DNA of 64,000 nucleotides from an uncultured Alphaproteobacteria bacterium (GCA_905234185.1 CAJOGC010000002.1:103949-167948), one strand, 5' to 3'; positions 11,279-40,742 are shown, counted from the first letter of the stretch. Notes: generated from the sequence alone by a model not told the origin. Numbers and translations are program-made.

Positions 11279-12961
11279 ATGAAACAAAAGTCATACATTA
11301 TTGACGATAAACAACTGATGTCCGAATGGGACTGGGATGCCAATGTTGGTTTAGATCCGAAAACATTAACCCGTGGATCAAATAAAAAGGCATGGTGGGT
11401 ATGTTCGGTATGTGGGCATAAATGGTGTGCCGATATACATCATAGAGCCGTAAGAAAACAAGGTTGTTTAAACTGCCGATATGTATATAAAAAACAACTT
11501 GCTTCTATTTTGTCTGAAACACATCCAAAAGTCCTTAAATACTGGGATTTTTCAAAAAATAAATTGATAACCCCCGAAATTGTCAGCCAGAATTCGCGTA
11601 AAAGCGTTTGGTGGCATTGTCCAGATTGTGGCCATGAATGGGAAGAAAAAATAAAAAATCAGGTTAAAAAATTAGTTTGGTGCCCACATTGTAAGAAGGG
11701 AATTAAAGATTTGGCTTCTGTGGAACCAGAACTTGCAAAAGAATGGCATAAAACAAAAAATACTGATGCCCCAGAACATATTTCGTATGCTTCTAACAAA
11801 TATGCATGGTGGAAATGCCAAAAGTGTGGTTACGAATGGAAAGCCAGAATAGCCAACAGGTCAATATTGAAACGGGGGTGTCCTTGTTGTTCTGGTGGTG
11901 CGGTTGTCGTCGGAATAAACGATTTAAAAACAAAGTTTCCGCATATAGCAAAAGAATGGCACCCTACAAAAAACGGTGAACTTTTACCAGAACAAGTCAC
12001 TTCTGGTACAAGAAAGAAAGTTTGGTGGCAATGCCCACTGGGACACGAATACCAAGCAACGGTAGGACACAGGACATCACAAAATGGCACAGGGTGTCCA
12101 ATATGTTATTCAGGACGTCAAACATCATTCGCTGAACAGGCTGTATTCTTTTATGTAAAACAATTATATCCCGACGCACTAAGCAGGTATAAGGCAGACT
12201 TTTTGGGAAAATTTGAATTGGATATTTATATCCCATCAATCAAATATGCGATAGAATACGATGGTGAAGCATGGCATAAAGCGAATAAATTAGAACGCGA
12301 AAAACGAAAGTATCAATTGTGCAAACAGAACGGCATCACATTACTCAGATTACGAGAAAAGGAACCAGAACATGATGCTGAAGTGGCAGATGATATAATT
12401 TGTGTGAAAAATCTATACGAACACAGAAATCTTGAAATGGTATTAAGACGGTTATTGGTGAAATTGAACCCGCAATCGGTAATGCCTGACAACTTTGTTA
12501 ATTTGGCCAGGGATAATCATAAAATCTTGGAATATAAAAAATCGGCCATATCAGAATCATTGATGTCCGTCAGACCAGATATTGCGATGGAATGGCATCC
12601 AACAAAAAATGGTAACCTGTTACCAAGTATGTTTAAAGCAGGTTCTGAACATAAAGTATGGTGGATTTGTCCAAAGTGTGCCACCGAATATCAAACAAGT
12701 ATTGCTCATAGAACAGATAAAAAGGTTCCAACAGGATGCCCAAAGTGTGGCAAAGAGCGAAGTGACTTAGCGAAAAGTGTCGCTGTAAATATGTTAGATT
12801 TGAAAACGAAAAAAGTATTAAAAACATTCGTTTCTGTATCAGATGCATCAAGGCAAATGAAAATCAATTTATCTAACATATGTATGGCTTGCAAAGGCCA
12901 ACGCAACCAAGCTGGTGGGTACGGTTGGGAATATAATTTAAAAATATGCAAAAGAAAATAA
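11279..12961 (+). CDS. zinc-ribbon-repeat / PD-(D/E)xK (DUF559-like) / NUMOD1 composite protein (homing-endonuclease-like), 560 aa
   Basis: Five WW-x-C-x2-C-x-H-x-W...C-x2-C treble-clef repeats. The central block FELDIYIPSIKYAIEYDGEAWH...GITLLRLRE matches the DUF559/Vsr-like nuclease core. The C-terminal block VSVSDASRQMKINLSNICMACKGQRNQAGGYGWEY matches the NUMOD1 pattern. Confidence 0.6.
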   Translation: MKQKSYIIDDKQLMSEWDWDANVGLDPKTLTRGSNKKAWWVCSVCGHKWCADIHHRAVRKQGCLNCRYVYKKQLASILSETHPKVLKYWDFSKNKLITPEIVSQNSRKSVWWHCPDCGHEWEEKIKNQVKKLVWCPHCKKGIKDLASVEPELAKEWHKTKNTDAPEHISYASNKYAWWKCQKCGYEWKARIANRSILKRGCPCCSGGAVVVGINDLKTKFPHIAKEWHPTKNGELLPEQVTSGTRKKVWWQCPLGHEYQATVGHRTSQNGTGCPICYSGRQTSFAEQAVFFYVKQLYPDALSRYKADFLGKFELDIYIPSIKYAIEYDGEAWHKANKLEREKRKYQLCKQNGITLLRLREKEPEHDAEVADDIICVKNLYEHRNLEMVLRRLLVKLNPQSVMPDNFVNLARDNHKILEYKKSAISESLMSVRPDIAMEWHPTKNGNLLPSMFKAGSEHKVWWICPKCATEYQTSIAHRTDKKVPTGCPKCGKERSDLAKSVAVNMLDLKTKKVLKTFVSVSDASRQMKINLSNICMACKGQRNQAGGYGWEYNLKICKRK

Positions 12962-17414: not shown

Positions 17415-17489
17415 CCTTATTTATGCCTAATTGCAAACAGATTGATTTATCATTGCGAGGGAGCATAGCGACCGCGGCAATCCATAAAA

Positions 17490-17616
17490 ACTACCCCGCC
17501 ACTTCGTGACACCCCTTCGCTCGCGAAGGGGATTTTACTTTCTGGAATCATAGCATAAATCCCCTTCACTGTGTGAAGGGGTGGATTGCGAACGTTAGTG
17601 AGAAAGACGGGGTAGT
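17490..17616. mobile_element. MITE family 1, copy 1 (terminal inverted repeat actaccccg...cggggtagt, two internal ccccttc...gaagggg hairpins)
   Basis: The ends are exact reverse complements. The internal tctggaatcata core is shared with the copies at 25702-25834 and 27028-27088. Confidence 0.65.
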
Positions 17617-17618
17617 CC

Positions 17619-17785
17619 CCTGCCCCCTTGTGGGGCGGGATAGATTTATTTACGAACAAAGTGAGTTAATAAATCTTGGGTGGGGGAATTATAGGCGTTC
17701 TGTTTGCCCCCACCCAAGAGTCGCTAGTTCACATACGTTCACAAGCCGACTCTGTCCCGCCCCGCACGCTTTGCGCGGGGGCAGG
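17619..17785. mobile_element. MITE family 2: empty derivative of the DUF559 element (left and right ~70-80-bp TIRs separated by a 19-bp spacer)
   Basis: Left arm ctgcccccttgtggggcgggatag...cttgggtggggg. The right arm gcccccacccaagagtcgctagttcac...ctgtcccgcccc...gggggcagg is the reverse complement of the left TIR of the element at 39430-39983. Confidence 0.65.
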
Positions 17786-25621: not shown

Positions 25622-25701
25622 TTCGTGCTCCTTTACTTCTACGATTATAACAATATTTCGCACAACAGCAAATCTAAAAAACACCGACGCCCGCCGTCAC
25701 C

Positions 25702-25834
25702 ACTACCCCGCCTCGTTCCACTCGGCACCCTTTCACTGGAGTGAAGGGGAATTAAATTATCTGGAATCATATACCAGGTAATAAAAAATCCCCTTCATTG
25801 TATGAAGGGGTGGACGCGTAGCGGACGGGGTAGT
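25702..25834. mobile_element. MITE family 1, copy 2
   Basis: actaccccgcc...tctggaatcatata...ccccttcattgtatgaagggg...gacggggtagt. The TIRs are reverse complements. Confidence 0.65.
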
Positions 25835-25883
25835 GATGAACCAGAGTGTAGCATTCCCCCTTTAACGAATACAACAAATTGGA

Positions 25884-26768
25884 TTATTCATCCACACCGT
25901 AAATAAAATCGCCTGTGCCGGAATTACCATAAAACTTCTGTCCAACAACATCCCACATGCCATTTGCCGGAACCGTATAATTACCAATCACCATACCGGC
26001 GGGGACCGGAATAAAGTGTCCCAACAAAGTATCACCATTATATATCACAACATCATACCAATTCATCGTTCGTGACCAATATTCATCCCACCACGAACCA
26101 AAAACAATTGTATCTTCACCAGTTGCGACATAATTAATATCAAATGTTTGTTTAGTTCGTTCTTTGAATTGTGCACATGTTAAATCAGGAAAAACACGTA
26201 ATAATCTTGGGGCCCTATTATTCAACGACACTATACCACTGCTATAAGTTATGTAATTTGTCCCCAAAACGTTAGGGAAGGCACTACTACTGGCAAAAAA
26301 CATTGCGCGGTCTTCATAGCCTCTTGGTGGCGTTTCTATGTGTCTGTATCCAACTGTAAAAACGACCCTGCTGGAATCCAACCAATTTACACCTGTATCT
26401 ATATTATTTAAATACCCGTTTGTTACATCGTTTTGTATTTTCAAATACACATCGTCGTCCGCACCAACCAGACAATCACCAACAAACCAATGATGCCCCA
26501 CGTGTGTCTTGGTGCCAATGCATGCACTGTATACAGCATTATCATACATAACATGCAATGTATTTGTCAGATTTTTTCGAACCATTGGTATATGATAAAC
26601 ACTGCCGTTATCGGTCATTATATTAAAAGATGGCATTCCGAACTTTTCAGCATGTGCCGGTATGGACGCATTACCAATGCGCAATGCATAGCCCCAACAA
26701 ATTGTTGGTGCCAATATCAATAAAAATATTACTAATATTTTTCTCAACCCCGAATTCCCCAACCGCAA
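25884..26768 (-). CDS. secreted hypothetical protein (294 aa) with signal peptide
   Basis: Has a hydrophobic N-terminus with an ...ICWGYA cleavage-like site and is rich in Tyr/Asn/Gly. Repeats flank it on both sides. The start codon is uncertain (TTG). Confidence 0.5.
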   Translation of the reverse strand: MRLGNSGLRKILVIFLLILAPTICWGYALRIGNASIPAHAEKFGMPSFNIMTDNGSVYHIPMVRKNLTNTLHVMYDNAVYSACIGTKTHVGHHWFVGDCLVGADDDVYLKIQNDVTNGYLNNIDTGVNWLDSSRVVFTVGYRHIETPPRGYEDRAMFFASSSAFPNVLGTNYITYSSGIVSLNNRAPRLLRVFPDLTCAQFKERTKQTFDINYVATGEDTIVFGSWWDEYWSRTMNWYDVVIYNGDTLLGHFIPVPAGMVIGNYTVPANGMWDVVGQKFYGNSGTGDFIYGVDE

Positions 26769-26992: not shown

Positions 26993-27027
26993 AAAACATT
27001 TGGTATATTTTATGCAATATTAAAAAC

Positions 27028-27088
27028 ACTACCCCGTCACTTCGTGACACCCCTTCGCACGGCAAAGGGGATTTTTAGTATCTGGAAT
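27028..27088. mobile_element. MITE family 1, truncated copy 3 (left half only)
   Basis: actaccccgtcacttcgtgacaccccttcgcacggcaaaggggatttttagtatctggaat, then diverges into a tgtcatccctgcgatggatggga module. Confidence 0.5.
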
Positions 27089-27251
27089 ATGATTCCATAG
27101 AACTGTCATCCCTGCGATGGATGGGAATTATTACTTTTTCAATTTATCGGTTATTTTATTACGCAGGATTCCCCATACTGTTTGATAGATCTTGTGTAAG
27201 AGTATATGATGAATAACCCCATAAAAAATACCAGCATTTGCCGGTATTTTT

Positions 27252-33314: not shown

Positions 33315-33400
33315 TGGGGTGTCGTTCCGTTTCCTCGGCTAACGCCTCGCCCGGAATGACAACGACTATGTCATGTGGATATAGTTCGTTCCAAGTTCAC
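33315..33400 (+). mobile_element. miniature insertion element at the tRNA-Gln 5' end: 11-nt copy of tRNA nt 1-11 (tggggtgtcgt) plus a ~75-bp insert
   Basis: The insert tccgtttcctcggctaacgcctcgcccggaatgacaacgac... is homologous to the insert upstream of tRNA-Glu. It is followed by the intact tRNA. Confidence 0.6.
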
Positions 33401-33474
33401 TGGGGTGTCGTCTAATGGTAGGACAAGAGATTTTGGTTCTCTTTATCATGGTTCGAATCCGTGCGCCCCAACCA
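33401..33474 (+). tRNA. tRNA-Gln (anticodon TTG)
   Basis: Cloverleaf: acceptor TGGGGTG/CGCCCCA, anticodon loop TTTTGGT, T-loop TTCGAAT, encoded CCA. Confidence 0.85.
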
Positions 33475-34358: not shown

Positions 34359-34368
34359 ATTGCCACAC

Positions 34369-34498
34369 GGTCCCATCGTTCCGTTCCCTCGCTCCGCTCG
34401 CCCGGAATGACAACGACGACGGGACGATAGACGGTCCCATCGTTCCGTTCCCTCGCTCCGCTCGCCCGGAATGACAACGACGACGGGACGACATAGAC
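34369..34498 (+). mobile_element. two tandem copies of (11-nt tRNA-Glu 5' fragment ggtcccatcgt plus ~54-bp insert) immediately upstream of tRNA-Glu
   Basis: Copies at 34369-34432 and 34433-34498 differ by a 2-nt indel. The insert tccgttccctcgctccgctcgcccggaatgacaacgacgacgggacga contains the palindrome tcgcccg...cgggacga. Confidence 0.65.
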
Positions 34499-34573
34499 GG
34501 TCCCATCGTCTAGCGGTTAGGACATCGGATTCTCATTCCGGTAACATGGGTTCGATTCCCATTGGGACTGCCA
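34499..34573 (+). tRNA. tRNA-Glu (anticodon CTC)
   Basis: Cloverleaf: acceptor GGTCCCA/TGGGACT, D-loop AGCGGTTA, anticodon loop TTCTCAT, T-loop TTCGATT, encoded CCA. Architecture resembles E. coli tRNA-Glu. Confidence 0.85.
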
Positions 34574-38979: not shown

Positions 38980-39309
38980 TTATTTCTGATTTTTCTCACC
39001 AGCCAACAAAGCCAGTGTTTTTTTATCTTGCGCACTCAGCTGTTTACTAACCTTGTTGCTTCCATCGCAGCGAACACGCAACGCTGTAGCGATTTCATCA
39101 AAATCTTTATCTCCCACCGCGATTTCTTCGCCACCAATTTTCAACCAACGTCCATAGCCACTGTCCCAATCATTAAAAATTTCTATCATAACACGGCCCG
39201 TCGGCGATGTCAGAGTCATCTCTTCATCCCCCATACGCGCGAATCTCTTGGGTGTGTTTTCCGGATTTTTTATTTCGGTAATAATCTGCCCTTTTACATA
39301 TGGATTCAT
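38980..39309 (-). CDS. hypothetical protein (109 aa from the ATG with an AAGGAG SD)
   Basis: Strong SD. I recognise no family. Confidence 0.4.
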   Translation of the reverse strand: MNPYVKGQIITEIKNPENTPKRFARMGDEEMTLTSPTGRVMIEIFNDWDSGYGRWLKIGGEEIAVGDKDFDEIATALRVRCDGSNKVSKQLSAQDKKTLALLAGEKNQK

Positions 39310-39429
39310 AATAAAACTCCTTTGATAATTCACTATATTTACGGAAATAATTGTATCACAAAAAACATAATAATCAAACAAAAACGGATAGGGTTGTTGG
39401 CAGGTATAAAAAAACGCGTAGCGTTTTCG

Positions 39430-39983
39430 CCTGCCCCCATTTTGTGGGGCGGGACAGAGTCGGCTTATGAACGCAGTGAATTAGCGACTCTTGGGTGGGG
39501 GCATTATTTTCCCCATCGCGACACAAAAAATTCATTAAAATCCAAATGTTCGTTTATACACATGTGCAATGTATCAACAACCGTTTTCATACCTTGTTTC
39601 GTTAATTCTGCATTTGCAACACGAATAACTTTATAGCCCTGTGATTCTATAAACTCTGTGCGCTTGTTGTCGTATTCAATATTTTCTGCGTGTTGGTTGC
39701 CATCAAGTTCAATAACCAATTTCAATTCATTACACACAAAATCAACATAATATGGACCAAACGGTTGTTGCCGGCGGAACTTTACCCCCAGTTTGTTATT
39801 ATTAATTTGATACCAGAATTTGCGTTCTGGGTCAGACATATTTTTACGCAGGTTTTTTGCACGAATAATGTTTGCTGGGTGATTTGTCATAATACAATTT
39901 TACCCCCACCCAAGATTTTCATCAACATTAAAAATGTTGTGAAAATCTGTCCCGCCCCACACGCACAATGTGCGCGGGGGCAG
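39430..39983. mobile_element. compact TIR-bounded element carrying a single DUF559 endonuclease gene
   Basis: Left TIR cctgccccc...gtggggcgggacagagtcggcttatgaacgcagtgaattagcgactcttgggtggggg (39430-39502). The right TIR (39902-39983) is its reverse complement with a variable internal palindrome. The ORF fills the interior. Confidence 0.65.
39504..39890 (-). CDS. DUF559 (Vsr-like PD-(D/E)xK) endonuclease-domain protein, 128 aa
   Basis: PERKFWYQI...FGPYYVDFVCNELKLVIELDGNQH...DNKRTEFIESQGYKVIRV is the canonical DUF559 core. Confidence 0.7.
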   Translation of the reverse strand: MTNHPANIIRAKNLRKNMSDPERKFWYQINNNKLGVKFRRQQPFGPYYVDFVCNELKLVIELDGNQHAENIEYDNKRTEFIESQGYKVIRVANAELTKQGMKTVVDTLHMCINEHLDFNEFFVSRWGK

Positions 39984-40010
39984 GTGAAAAATGCACCAAA
40001 CGGCGCATTT

Positions 40011-40742
40011 TTATTCCCTTTTTGCCCAACGACAAATTACAATCGCGTGGTCGGCGGAATCGGTGCGGATTTTGTGATAAGATGTATTGCCGTCTATTTT
40101 AACATCAACAAATACTTCCGGGGTTTCTGGATTTATTTCTTTCTTATAGTTTAATTCAATACCACACAATTTATGTTCATTGCGATATACATACCCAACA
40201 CTTTCCGTTGCCCATACCGCATAAACCGCATTGTTAATATGCTGATTCACATCGATATCATCGAAACGGCATTTCATAATATGTGTCTTTTCCGCATCAA
40301 AATCGGGAAACTTATCAAATGTCCGATTAAACGCGCGTTCGTTCACCAAAATATCCGCCGGCAATTTATCTTCCAATAACACAGGACGCCGACGTTCCAT
40401 ATCAATCAAAACCCACTGGGACGTCGCGCGAACCATTAACCGATTATCAGACCCACGAATTTCAAAATCGCGCACCGTACGCAAAGCGTCCGATATCGAC
40501 GGCCATGTGGTAAATTGTAATTCCTCGTTCTCGTGTGGCAATTCAACGATATCCACCAAATAATGCGTCACCACCCACGCCAAATTGTTTTCCAACAAGA
40601 ATGTGCGCCCAACGCCTAACAATTCCGCATGCGTGTCCGCCATTGATTGCAATTCGTTCATCAAAATAAGTGGACGAACATTGCCATAGCGGTCACATTG
40701 ATACGCCTGCAACTTTCTAATCTCGGTGTATTTGTCCGCCAT
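40011..40742 (-). CDS. acyl-ACP thioesterase
   Basis: Tandem hotdog fold (PF01643-like), e.g. NELQSMADTHAELLG...WVVTHYLVDIV. Confidence 0.65.
   Translation of the reverse strand: MADKYTEIRKLQAYQCDRYGNVRPLILMNELQSMADTHAELLGVGRTFLLENNLAWVVTHYLVDIVELPHENEELQFTTWPSISDALRTVRDFEIRGSDNRLMVRATSQWVLIDMERRRPVLLEDKLPADILVNERAFNRTFDKFPDFDAEKTHIMKCRFDDIDVNQHINNAVYAVWATESVGYVYRNEHKLCGIELNYKKEINPETPEVFVDVKIDGNTSYHKIRTDSADHAIVICRWAKRE

Follow-up and report, generated by a model that had tools for sequence, protein, structure and literature searches.

A DUF559 nuclease gene between inverted BoxC/PIT/TMECO-like repeats, a candidate selfish repeat/nuclease element of an uncultured alphaproteobacterium

The nuclease gene and the repeat units around it

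The DNA analysed here (the window) is a stretch of 64,000 nucleotides (nt) from an uncultured Alphaproteobacteria bacterium (GCA_905234185.1, CAJOGC010000002.1:103949-167948). Scaffold_50 of ENA ERZ28573687, from an AT-rich uncultured alphaproteobacterium, has an identical sequence. The window contains a lone gene for a DUF559 nuclease of 128 amino acids (aa) placed between two structured repeat units of about 74-82 nt (Table 1). The two units are mutually inverted; one is 0-2 nt away from the stop codon of the gene, and the other 12 nt away from its start codon. A first-pass annotation, made from the sequence alone, had described this gene between inverted repeats, an internal palindrome in each repeat, and the same repeat pair without an open reading frame (ORF) elsewhere in the window. 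All three descriptions were borne out by profile searches and DNA folding. The ORF-less pair has a spacer of about 18-20 nt and folds as a whole at -49.9 kcal/mol (z = -8.1).

The gene product matched Pfam DUF559 (PF04480) with E=3e-34 (117.6 bits, cut-off 20.6) over profile positions 6-104 of 109, NCBIfam PRK09767 with E=4.6e-23, which is under the equivalog cut-off, and the sequence of PDB 3hrl with E=1e-20. The motif D50...E61-x-D63...H67 and several basic residues were invariant in homologue alignments of 20 and 43 sequences. An AlphaFold2 (AF2) model of the protein (pLDDT 88) was matched by Foldseek to 3hrl, to I-Bth0305I (PDB 3r3p, E=1.3e-4), to PvuRts1I and to Vsr (1vsr). Model and motif point to a Vsr-like PD-(D/E)xK fold with the D...ExD...H catalytic motif, and from its conserved residues the protein looks active. 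Vsr, DUF559 and DUF2726 form one clade of PD-(D/E)xK nucleases (PMC3424549), and the DUF559 / COG2852 / YcjD-like family comprises about 21,600 clusters (representatives) at 50% identity. DUF559 proteins can be active nucleases, since the DUF559 protein VsrA of Caulobacter caused DNA damage and an SOS response in vivo; it was read as a very-short-patch repair enzyme (PMC12907096). Among the window genes, Pfam searches found no C5-cytosine methyltransferase next to the DUF559 gene, and only marginal PADLOC matches bore on membership in a defence system. A promoter-like site covers the inner edge of the upstream unit, with 7 nt between its end and the ATG.

Read 5' to 3' on the G-rich strand, a unit consists of box1 (CCTGCCCCC), a variable loop of 2-17 nt that is sometimes a small hairpin itself, box2 (GTGGGGCGGGA(C/T)AG), a hairpin of about 30-40 nt (HP2) and box3 (CTTGGGTGGGGG). 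Box1 and box2 pair with each other to form a second hairpin, HP1. In single-strand DNA folding both hairpins form, and box3, the 3' G-block, is left unpaired (z-scores -1.8 to -8.2). The motif GTGGGGCGGGACAG with up to two mismatches was found five times in the window, against 0.19 expected, and CTTGGGTGGGGG with up to one mismatch four times, against 0.18 expected; 0/100 shuffles reached either count.

The outer stem of HP2, of 9 bp, was 77-98% Watson-Crick paired in 153 distinct sequences, with three to five pair types at each of the positions 3-9. When the partners were shuffled, 0/1000 shuffles reached the observed pairing at 8/9 positions, the exception being position 2, a near-invariant G-C pair (31/1000). 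HP2 is thus under structural selection. HP1 is invariant in sequence, with a T.G mismatch in 66/76 distinct versions. The units are more likely a DNA-level structure than an RNA, because G.T pairs in HP2 are rare (≤3%), a T.T mismatch at position 10 is kept in 113/153 sequences, the loops are often GCGNAGC or CTTG, and Rfam gave no match. At the gathering threshold the window contained two tRNAs only, and the sole match at E≤1 was a chance mir-76 (E=0.84), so that a known RNA family was rejected. The interruptions of the blocks are in register in the window units (G in box1, C in box2, T in box3). The second G-block mirrors the first, and could lie in the groove as a third strand (triplex) or build a G-quadruplex.

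Association of DUF559 genes with three-block repeats

A scan of one genome per species with the DNA pattern of the units alone gave at least 117 blocks (783 kb listed), almost all from metagenome-assembled genomes (MAGs) of gut Alphaproteobacteria, namely Ca. Enterousia, termite-gut 'Rickettsiales', and rumen or human-gut MAGs. The counts in this and the next paragraph refer to the matches listed. They contained 212 units, with 116 in forward-plus-reverse dimers, 14 flanking a gene, and 82 solo or in other arrangements. The distance to a unit was 5-71 nt for every one of the 22 DUF559 genes; under random placement the figure is 0.16 per gene, and the joint probability for the 22 genes is about 1e-19. 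Units outnumbered genes by about 10:1, and the sampled parts of one genome (Gx485_bin8) held 66 units and a single gene.

The 67 consecutive forward-to-reverse pairs had spacers of either 15-56 nt (59 pairs) or 284-423 nt (8 pairs), with none between or beyond these ranges. All eight long-spacer pairs hold a DUF559 gene, and no other cargo was found between a forward and a reverse unit. When the ORFs of at least 90 aa were clustered, DUF559 was the only recurrent family adjoining the units, the runner-up being the antisense frame of DUF559 itself, and no transposase-like family recurred near units in these blocks. The repeats do not therefore appear as part of a larger insertion sequence (IS) with its own transposase, a possibility raised by the first-pass annotation. 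Nor are they confined to the window's gene copy: inverted repeats are kept at other copies within the clade whose proteins are as little as about 55% identical, and in a generalised form family-wide. Three layouts were found: (a) the gene between a unit and an inverted unit, which is the layout of the window; (b) a whole dimer followed by a promoter-like stretch, then the gene and a second whole dimer; and (c) a longer element whose inverted repeat runs about 60 nt past box1. No units were found in viral contigs.

Units of the alphaproteobacterial type, and in L033 a DUF559 gene as well, also occur in contigs binned to unrelated phyla (L018 and L033, BNTP01, 'Bacteroidia bacterium MS495-25'; and L058, 'Acutalibacteraceae'), by either mis-binning or horizontal transfer. 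Dense nested arrays of at least three to four repeat families, such as GTGGTTAGTGTAAGTG... and CAAAGAGCAATTAATG..., lie beside DUF559 elements in L061-L124 (MAG SIG46), L113, L117, L120 and L123. Many metagenome contigs stop within units, and the repeats thus fragment assemblies.

The BoxC/PIT/TMECO repeats of E. coli have been known since the 1990s. BoxC and PIT (potential intrastrand triplex) repeats were reportedly described in E. coli and other Proteobacteria by Bachellier et al. and by Hoyne, Maher et al. in 2000. The window units share with these repeats the order C-block, complementary G-block and mirror G-block (class II purine-motif triplex), the intergenic, multi-copy occurrence, and one conserved mismatch in the C/G hairpin. 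The block sequences differ, being CCTGCCCCC / GGGGCGGG / GGGTGGGGG in the window units and CCCTCNCCC / GGGNGAGGG / GGGNGAGGG in BoxC/PIT/TMECO, and loop 2 is a covarying hairpin of 35-45 nt in the former and 3 nt in TMECO. Because of both differences, the window units fail the published TMECO consensus, CCCTCNCCC-N3-6-GGGNGAGGG-N3-GGGNGAGGG (Holder et al. 2015, PMC4666352), and the ITxF loop limit (1-6 nt). With HP2 closed, three linker nt are left between box2 and box3, which is the length of loop 2 in TMECO, and HP2 therefore looks like an insertion into that loop. A generic three-block finder (C-block, complementary G-block and mirror G-block, each of at least 8 nt with up to one mismatch) found exactly four units in the whole 64-kb window; in a 12-kb E. 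coli control its one match was TMECO #9. Judged by their blocks, the window repeats are of the BoxC/PIT/TMECO kind, their loop 2 carrying an inserted hairpin. That the repeats are not novel, and that in several genomes the gene lies between two whole dimers, had escaped the first-pass annotation.

The generality of the association was seen in 80 diverse DUF559 loci from JGI metagenomes, which were chosen by protein only (37-83% identity) and represent many environments and lineages. Three-block motifs (C, G and mirror G) were present at 77/80 loci, with a total of 176 motifs against 4 in shuffled loci, and motif density within 200 nt of the gene was 20 times that in the rest of the same loci. 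A forward motif upstream was combined with a reverse motif downstream in 43/71 loci with both flanks. The start codon usually lies -2 to +12 nt after the forward motif, and the ORF reads through the reverse motif in 46/63 of these loci. Block sequences vary by lineage yet stay mutually consistent; two orthologous elements (L148 and L210) showed coordinated changes in all three blocks and at both ends. The T.G mismatch was rejected as a universal recognition feature, being conserved in the window lineage and not general across DUF559-associated motifs; its recognition is kept as a sub-hypothesis for the window lineage.

E. coli MG1655 has 23 TMECO copies, with five pairs in inverted configuration (PMC4666352). 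These forward-plus-reverse pairs are 16-59 nt apart, like the window-type dimers. The E. coli DUF559 gene, ycjD (1351407-1351760), is followed 168 bp downstream by TMECO #9 (1351204-1351239). A truncated type-B TMECO contains the ycjD stop codon and encodes the last YcjD residues (SPSP), and a duplicated fragment of the ycjD 3' end (L143 7319-7370; positions 7196-7425 of L143, from NC_000913, correspond to 1351195-1351424) lies between the truncated TMECO and TMECO #9. The gene was present in 3378/5426 complete E. coli genomes (62%). In 60 evenly sampled genomes, other TMECO-like places numbered 14-29 (median 21) with ycjD and 2-20 (median 5) without it (Mann-Whitney p=5e-10, with no correction for phylogeny). 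Since ycjD presence follows E. coli phylogroups (PMC12817139), this correlation is suggestive only. A clean E. coli empty site was sought and rejected, as strains lacking ycjD carry the eefRABCD island there instead.

Deletion copies, an empty site and insertion contexts

Homologues of the window gene were found in different contexts: at 97% at the window's site, at 80% beside RNase T and UvrD, and at 70% beside pnp and ybaB. The gene is present or absent among close relatives. In some MAGs it is single-copy and stably placed; P0017 occupies one and the same site in 23 contigs. In the MAG SIG46 the element is about 690 bp long, and the sampled blocks contained three full copies together with at least five copies, at different sites, that share an identical 192-bp in-frame deletion (codons ~5-68). 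The multiplication of a defective copy implies end-to-end copying, with the protein, if any, supplied in trans. The ends of the SIG46 element resemble ordinary terminal inverted repeats, TTACTNNGATAAATAAAAG..., and no target-site duplication was evident in its copies.

An empty site was found in relatives of the window with an orphan ORF of 109 aa (ORF109) that is 84% identical to the one adjoining the element. These relatives have the acyl-ACP thioesterase gene, 96 nt and ORF109, with neither units nor DUF559. In the alignment, the window has about 602 bp extra, placed at the T-tract in the thioesterase gene's terminator. Of this extra DNA, 45 nt lie past the unit at the 3' side of the gene, so the ends of the element do not coincide exactly with those of the units. 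The inverted repeats of ~75 bp that the first-pass annotation took as the bounds of the element are real as inverted units, and the true ends extend past them. The inserted DNA has TTTTT on either side (39988-39992 and 39380-39384), within the terminator T-run, and may be a 5-bp duplication or the plain terminator T-run.

The intergenic site itself is an insertion hot spot: in a more distant relative (L228) a different palindromic repeat occupies the same spot, and in other relatives ORF109 is also absent or another gene is at the site. Thioesterase homologues with 88-90% identity were for this reason rejected as empty sites, being without the element and also without ORF109, or having another gene there. 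Exact-protein matches of pyrG and the thioesterase all came from the window's own genome or strain, where both repeats occur, and an automated search for empty sites among the fetched loci returned only repeat-rich nested arrays (SIG46, KV104 and KG228).

ORF109 (38980-39309, - strand) has no Pfam or NCBIfam match, and only four homologue clusters in 5.8 billion proteins; its presence or absence among close relatives is independent of the DUF559 element. The palindromic repeat of L228 belongs to a second family of about 135 nt, with the ends CACTACCCCG...CGGGGTAGTG and internal CCCCTTC...GAAGGGG hairpins. Its copies lie at 17486-17612, 25700-25835 and 27024-27102 in the window, at about 4660-4730 in L123, and at 1790-1930 in L117 and L228. 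One copy is directly beside the ORF-less dimer, the L228 member occupies the site of the window's DUF559 insertion, and two inverted partial copies bracket an ORF of 294 aa (25884-26768) with no Pfam match.

Interpretation of the locus and further features of the window

We regard it as about an even call that the locus is the protein-coding ('autonomous') copy of a selfish structured repeat family, with DUF559 as its cognate nuclease and only dedicated protein in a REP/RAYT-like arrangement. This reading builds on the architecture of the locus, the constraint on unit structure, the association of gene and repeat, both exclusive and general, the multi-copy deletion derivatives and the empty site. 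That the gene-less units (inverted pairs, single units and internal-deletion copies) are non-autonomous forms, as the first-pass annotation had proposed, is supported by the excess of units over genes, the deletion derivative at five or more sites and the empty site in a relative. The nuclease would be expressed from the putative promoter at the inner edge of the upstream unit, would recognise the folded or duplex unit and would nick or cut at or near the ends of the element. Host replication or repair would then copy the segment to new sites, preferably intergenic T-rich terminator regions, with the gene-less units served by the nuclease in trans.

The closest parallel is offered by the REP/REPIN repeats with their RAYT (Y1 HUH) genes, the 'REPtrons'. 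In these, too, a low-copy nuclease gene lies between inverted copies of a short structured repeat that is dispersed at far higher copy number as singlets and inverted doublets, with a hairpin kept by compensatory changes; REPs have no target-site duplication, and no clear one was found here. The layout is analogous only, since RAYT is an HUH Y1 transposase and the flanked gene here encodes a Vsr-like PD-(D/E)xK nuclease, for which, unlike RAYT, no strand-transfer chemistry is known; a REP is a 20-40-bp palindrome with a GTAG/CGTC tag, whereas the window repeat has three blocks and a hairpin. With MITEs (miniature transposable elements with inverted repeats) and their parent IS the element shares terminal inverted repeats, amplifying internal-deletion derivatives, intergenic insertion and presence/absence polymorphism in relatives. 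It differs from them in having no DDE, HUH, serine, tyrosine or DEDD transposase (DUF559 is its only ORF), no demonstrable target-site duplication, and terminal repeats that are highly structured inside.

Several points weigh against the selfish repeat/nuclease reading. We know of no strand-transfer activity in a lone small PD-(D/E)xK nuclease, so that a complete transposition chemistry is missing, and we infer both the binding or cleavage of the units by DUF559 and the mechanism of copying. There is no clear target-site duplication, as the TTTTT at the one insertion may belong to the terminator. The ends of the element are lineage-specific and reach past the units, and in several genomes the gene sits between two whole dimers and not inside one. 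In E. coli, lineages that lack ycjD retain 2-20 TMECO copies all the same, and the suggestive correlation between the two rests on few independent phylogenetic events. A distant transposase could also act in trans, the scans having covered sampled blocks.

A wider proposal, which we advance a little more tentatively, is that DUF559 as a family is the cognate endonuclease of BoxC/PIT/TMECO-type triplex-forming repeats, and that the two together form an unrecognised, widespread class of selfish elements. The nuclease would recognise a non-B fold (a hairpin and third strand, or a G-quadruplex) at the ends, and drive the copying of both gene-bearing and gene-less units. The repeats and the protein family were each known; what appears new is their link, and with it this kind of element. 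The TMECO repeats form triplex in vitro and were treated as a source of genome instability, not as mobile elements, and no associated gene was reported (PMC4666352). The authors of that study sought mobility genes and found none, which has left the repeats without an explained origin or a known partner protein. DUF559, including E. coli YcjD, is for its part a very large family of unknown function, read at most as a Vsr-like repair enzyme, and no link to BoxC/PIT/TMECO or any other repeat was found in the literature on DUF559 and YcjD. A specific and general physical link makes both puzzles directly testable. If the proposal is true, it would account for how the E. coli BoxC repeats arose and spread, and would give YcjD a function; if confirmed, the system would stand beside REP/RAYT as a new selfish repeat/nuclease system, based on PD-(D/E)xK and possibly on the recognition of non-B DNA.

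The main rival, which we hold to be unlikely though worth serious weight, is that of homing. A free-standing DUF559 endonuclease gene would parasitise the repeats by cutting empty inverted pairs in or near the spacer, and repair from an occupied pair would copy the gene or its deleted version; the units would be both the recognition site and the homology arms, and would themselves spread by other means. The nuclease alone would suffice for this, the gene is placed exactly where the 15-56-nt spacer of empty dimers lies, and the spread of an identical deletion derivative also fits repair in which a defective copy is the template. Among the structural relatives that have been characterised, the homing endonuclease I-Bth0305I is one of the closest; it is also a small selfish nuclease gene that is the sole cargo, with a related catalytic fold, and there are weak matches to PHROG homing endonucleases. 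Compared with I-Bth0305I, the window gene lies outside any intron or intein, is without that enzyme's extra DNA-binding domains, and is embedded in a dispersed repeat family and not in one conserved host gene. Homing leaves the proliferation of the units (116 in dimers and 82 solo, among the matches listed) without an agent, no other candidate gene having been found in the listed blocks, and it does not predict that TMECO copies are more numerous in E. coli lineages carrying ycjD. The gene in layout (b) is between two complete dimers and not inside one, and since the empty site lacks both units as well as the gene, the window gene did not home into a pre-existing dimer.

The remaining two rivals take the nuclease out of the spread altogether. 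It appears improbable that DUF559 is a housekeeping repair or structure-specific nuclease (for Vsr-like T:G mismatches, or as a resolver of hairpins, triplexes or G-quadruplexes), beside which repeats gather for regulation, or which is kept where such structures exist. Its membership of the Vsr clade, the interpretation of VsrA in Caulobacter as a very-short-patch repair enzyme (PMC12907096) and the conserved T.G mismatch in HP1, which is the lesion that Vsr recognises, are in its favour, as are the stable single-copy placement in some MAGs (P0017) and the possibility that the G-block at the start codon is a ribosome-binding site and the reverse motif at the stop codon a terminator. The gene nevertheless has no cytosine methyltransferase beside it in the window, is patchy among close relatives (and present in 62% of E. 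coli genomes), and is multi-copy, with decayed copies in SIG46 and different contexts in relatives, unlike a housekeeping gene; regulation would leave unexplained the 10-fold motif excess far from the gene and the co-evolving ends. Very improbable, in our judgement, is that the units are ordinary MITEs moved by a conventional transposase encoded elsewhere, with DUF559 as a passenger or a chance occupant of a hot spot. The ends in SIG46 do reach past the units and look like ordinary terminal inverted repeats, the window's site is a hot spot, with a different palindromic element in L228, and the scans covered sampled blocks and not whole genomes. Hitch-hiking with many transposases would, however, not yield an association in 77/80 unrelated loci with lineage-specific blocks; no transposase family recurs near units in the 783 kb of listed blocks, and neither transposase nor integrase was found near any E. 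coli TMECO (PMC4666352).

The coordinates of the element and of the ORF-less dimer are collected in Table 1, which also includes a second promoter candidate and a terminator-like hairpin. The neighbours of the DUF559 gene in the window are the acyl-ACP thioesterase gene, valS, ORF109 and rpmH.

Table 1. Positions of the DUF559 element, its repeat units and associated signals in the window
Feature	Position	Strand	Basis or remark
Unit at the 3' side of the gene	39430-39503	+ (forward)	sequence, motif finder, folding
Box1 (CCTGCCCCC) of the 3'-side unit	39430-39438; loop 39439-39443	+	
Box2 (GTGGGGCGGGACAG) of the 3'-side unit	39444-39457	+	
Hairpin HP2 of the 3'-side unit	about 39456-39491	+	
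Box3 (CTTGGGTGGGGG) of the 3'-side unit	39490-39501	+	
DUF559 (Vsr-like PD-(D/E)xK) nuclease gene, 128 aa	39504-39890	-	Pfam, PDB, alignments, AF2 model
Unit at the 5' side of the gene	39903-39984	- (forward on - strand)	sequence, motif finder, folding
Box3 complement of the 5'-side unit	39903-39914		
HP2 of the 5'-side unit	39913-39948		
Box2 complement of the 5'-side unit	39947-39960		
Extra loop hairpin of the 5'-side unit	39961-39975		
Box1 complement of the 5'-side unit	39976-39984		
Promoter-like site, TTGATG-17 nt-TAAAAT	39897-39925	-	consensus scan; putative promoter function
Second promoter candidate, TTCACA-17-GAAAAT	39943-39915	-	consensus scan
Acyl-ACP thioesterase terminator, T-tract as apparent insertion point	39985-40012	-	empty/filled alignment
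Extra inserted 45 nt past the unit on the 3' side of the gene	39385-39429	-	absent from the empty site (alignment)
Terminator-like hairpin AAAACGC-TAC-GCGTTTTTTT within the extra 45 nt	about 39405-39428	-	
ORF-less dimer, forward unit	17619-17687	+	
ORF-less dimer, reverse unit	17706-17785	-	ends 4 nt from the pyrG stop codon

A larger protein of 560 aa (11279-12961, + strand) had been described in the first-pass annotation as carrying the same nuclease domain fused to DNA-binding modules. The DNA-binding modules are there, namely five DUF4379 treble-clef zinc fingers and NUMOD modules; the nuclease core does not match DUF559 and is instead DUF2726/MTES_1575, of the same Vsr/DUF559/DUF2726 clade. 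The best PHROG matches of the protein are phage HNH and homing endonucleases (E=4e-42) and no units flank its gene, which has the appearance of a free-standing gene of homing-endonuclease type within a bacterial chromosome.

At 34367-34491 a 64-nt sequence (ACGGTCCCATCGTTCCGTTCCCTCGCTCCGCTCGCCCGGAATGACAACGACGACGGGACGA) is perfectly duplicated in tandem, just upstream of a tRNA-Glu gene (34499-34573), with a partial copy at 33346-33366 upstream of tRNA-Gln (33401-33474). Motifs of the form 'gtcattc...', akin to this sequence, are present in the related loci L005, L015 and L071.

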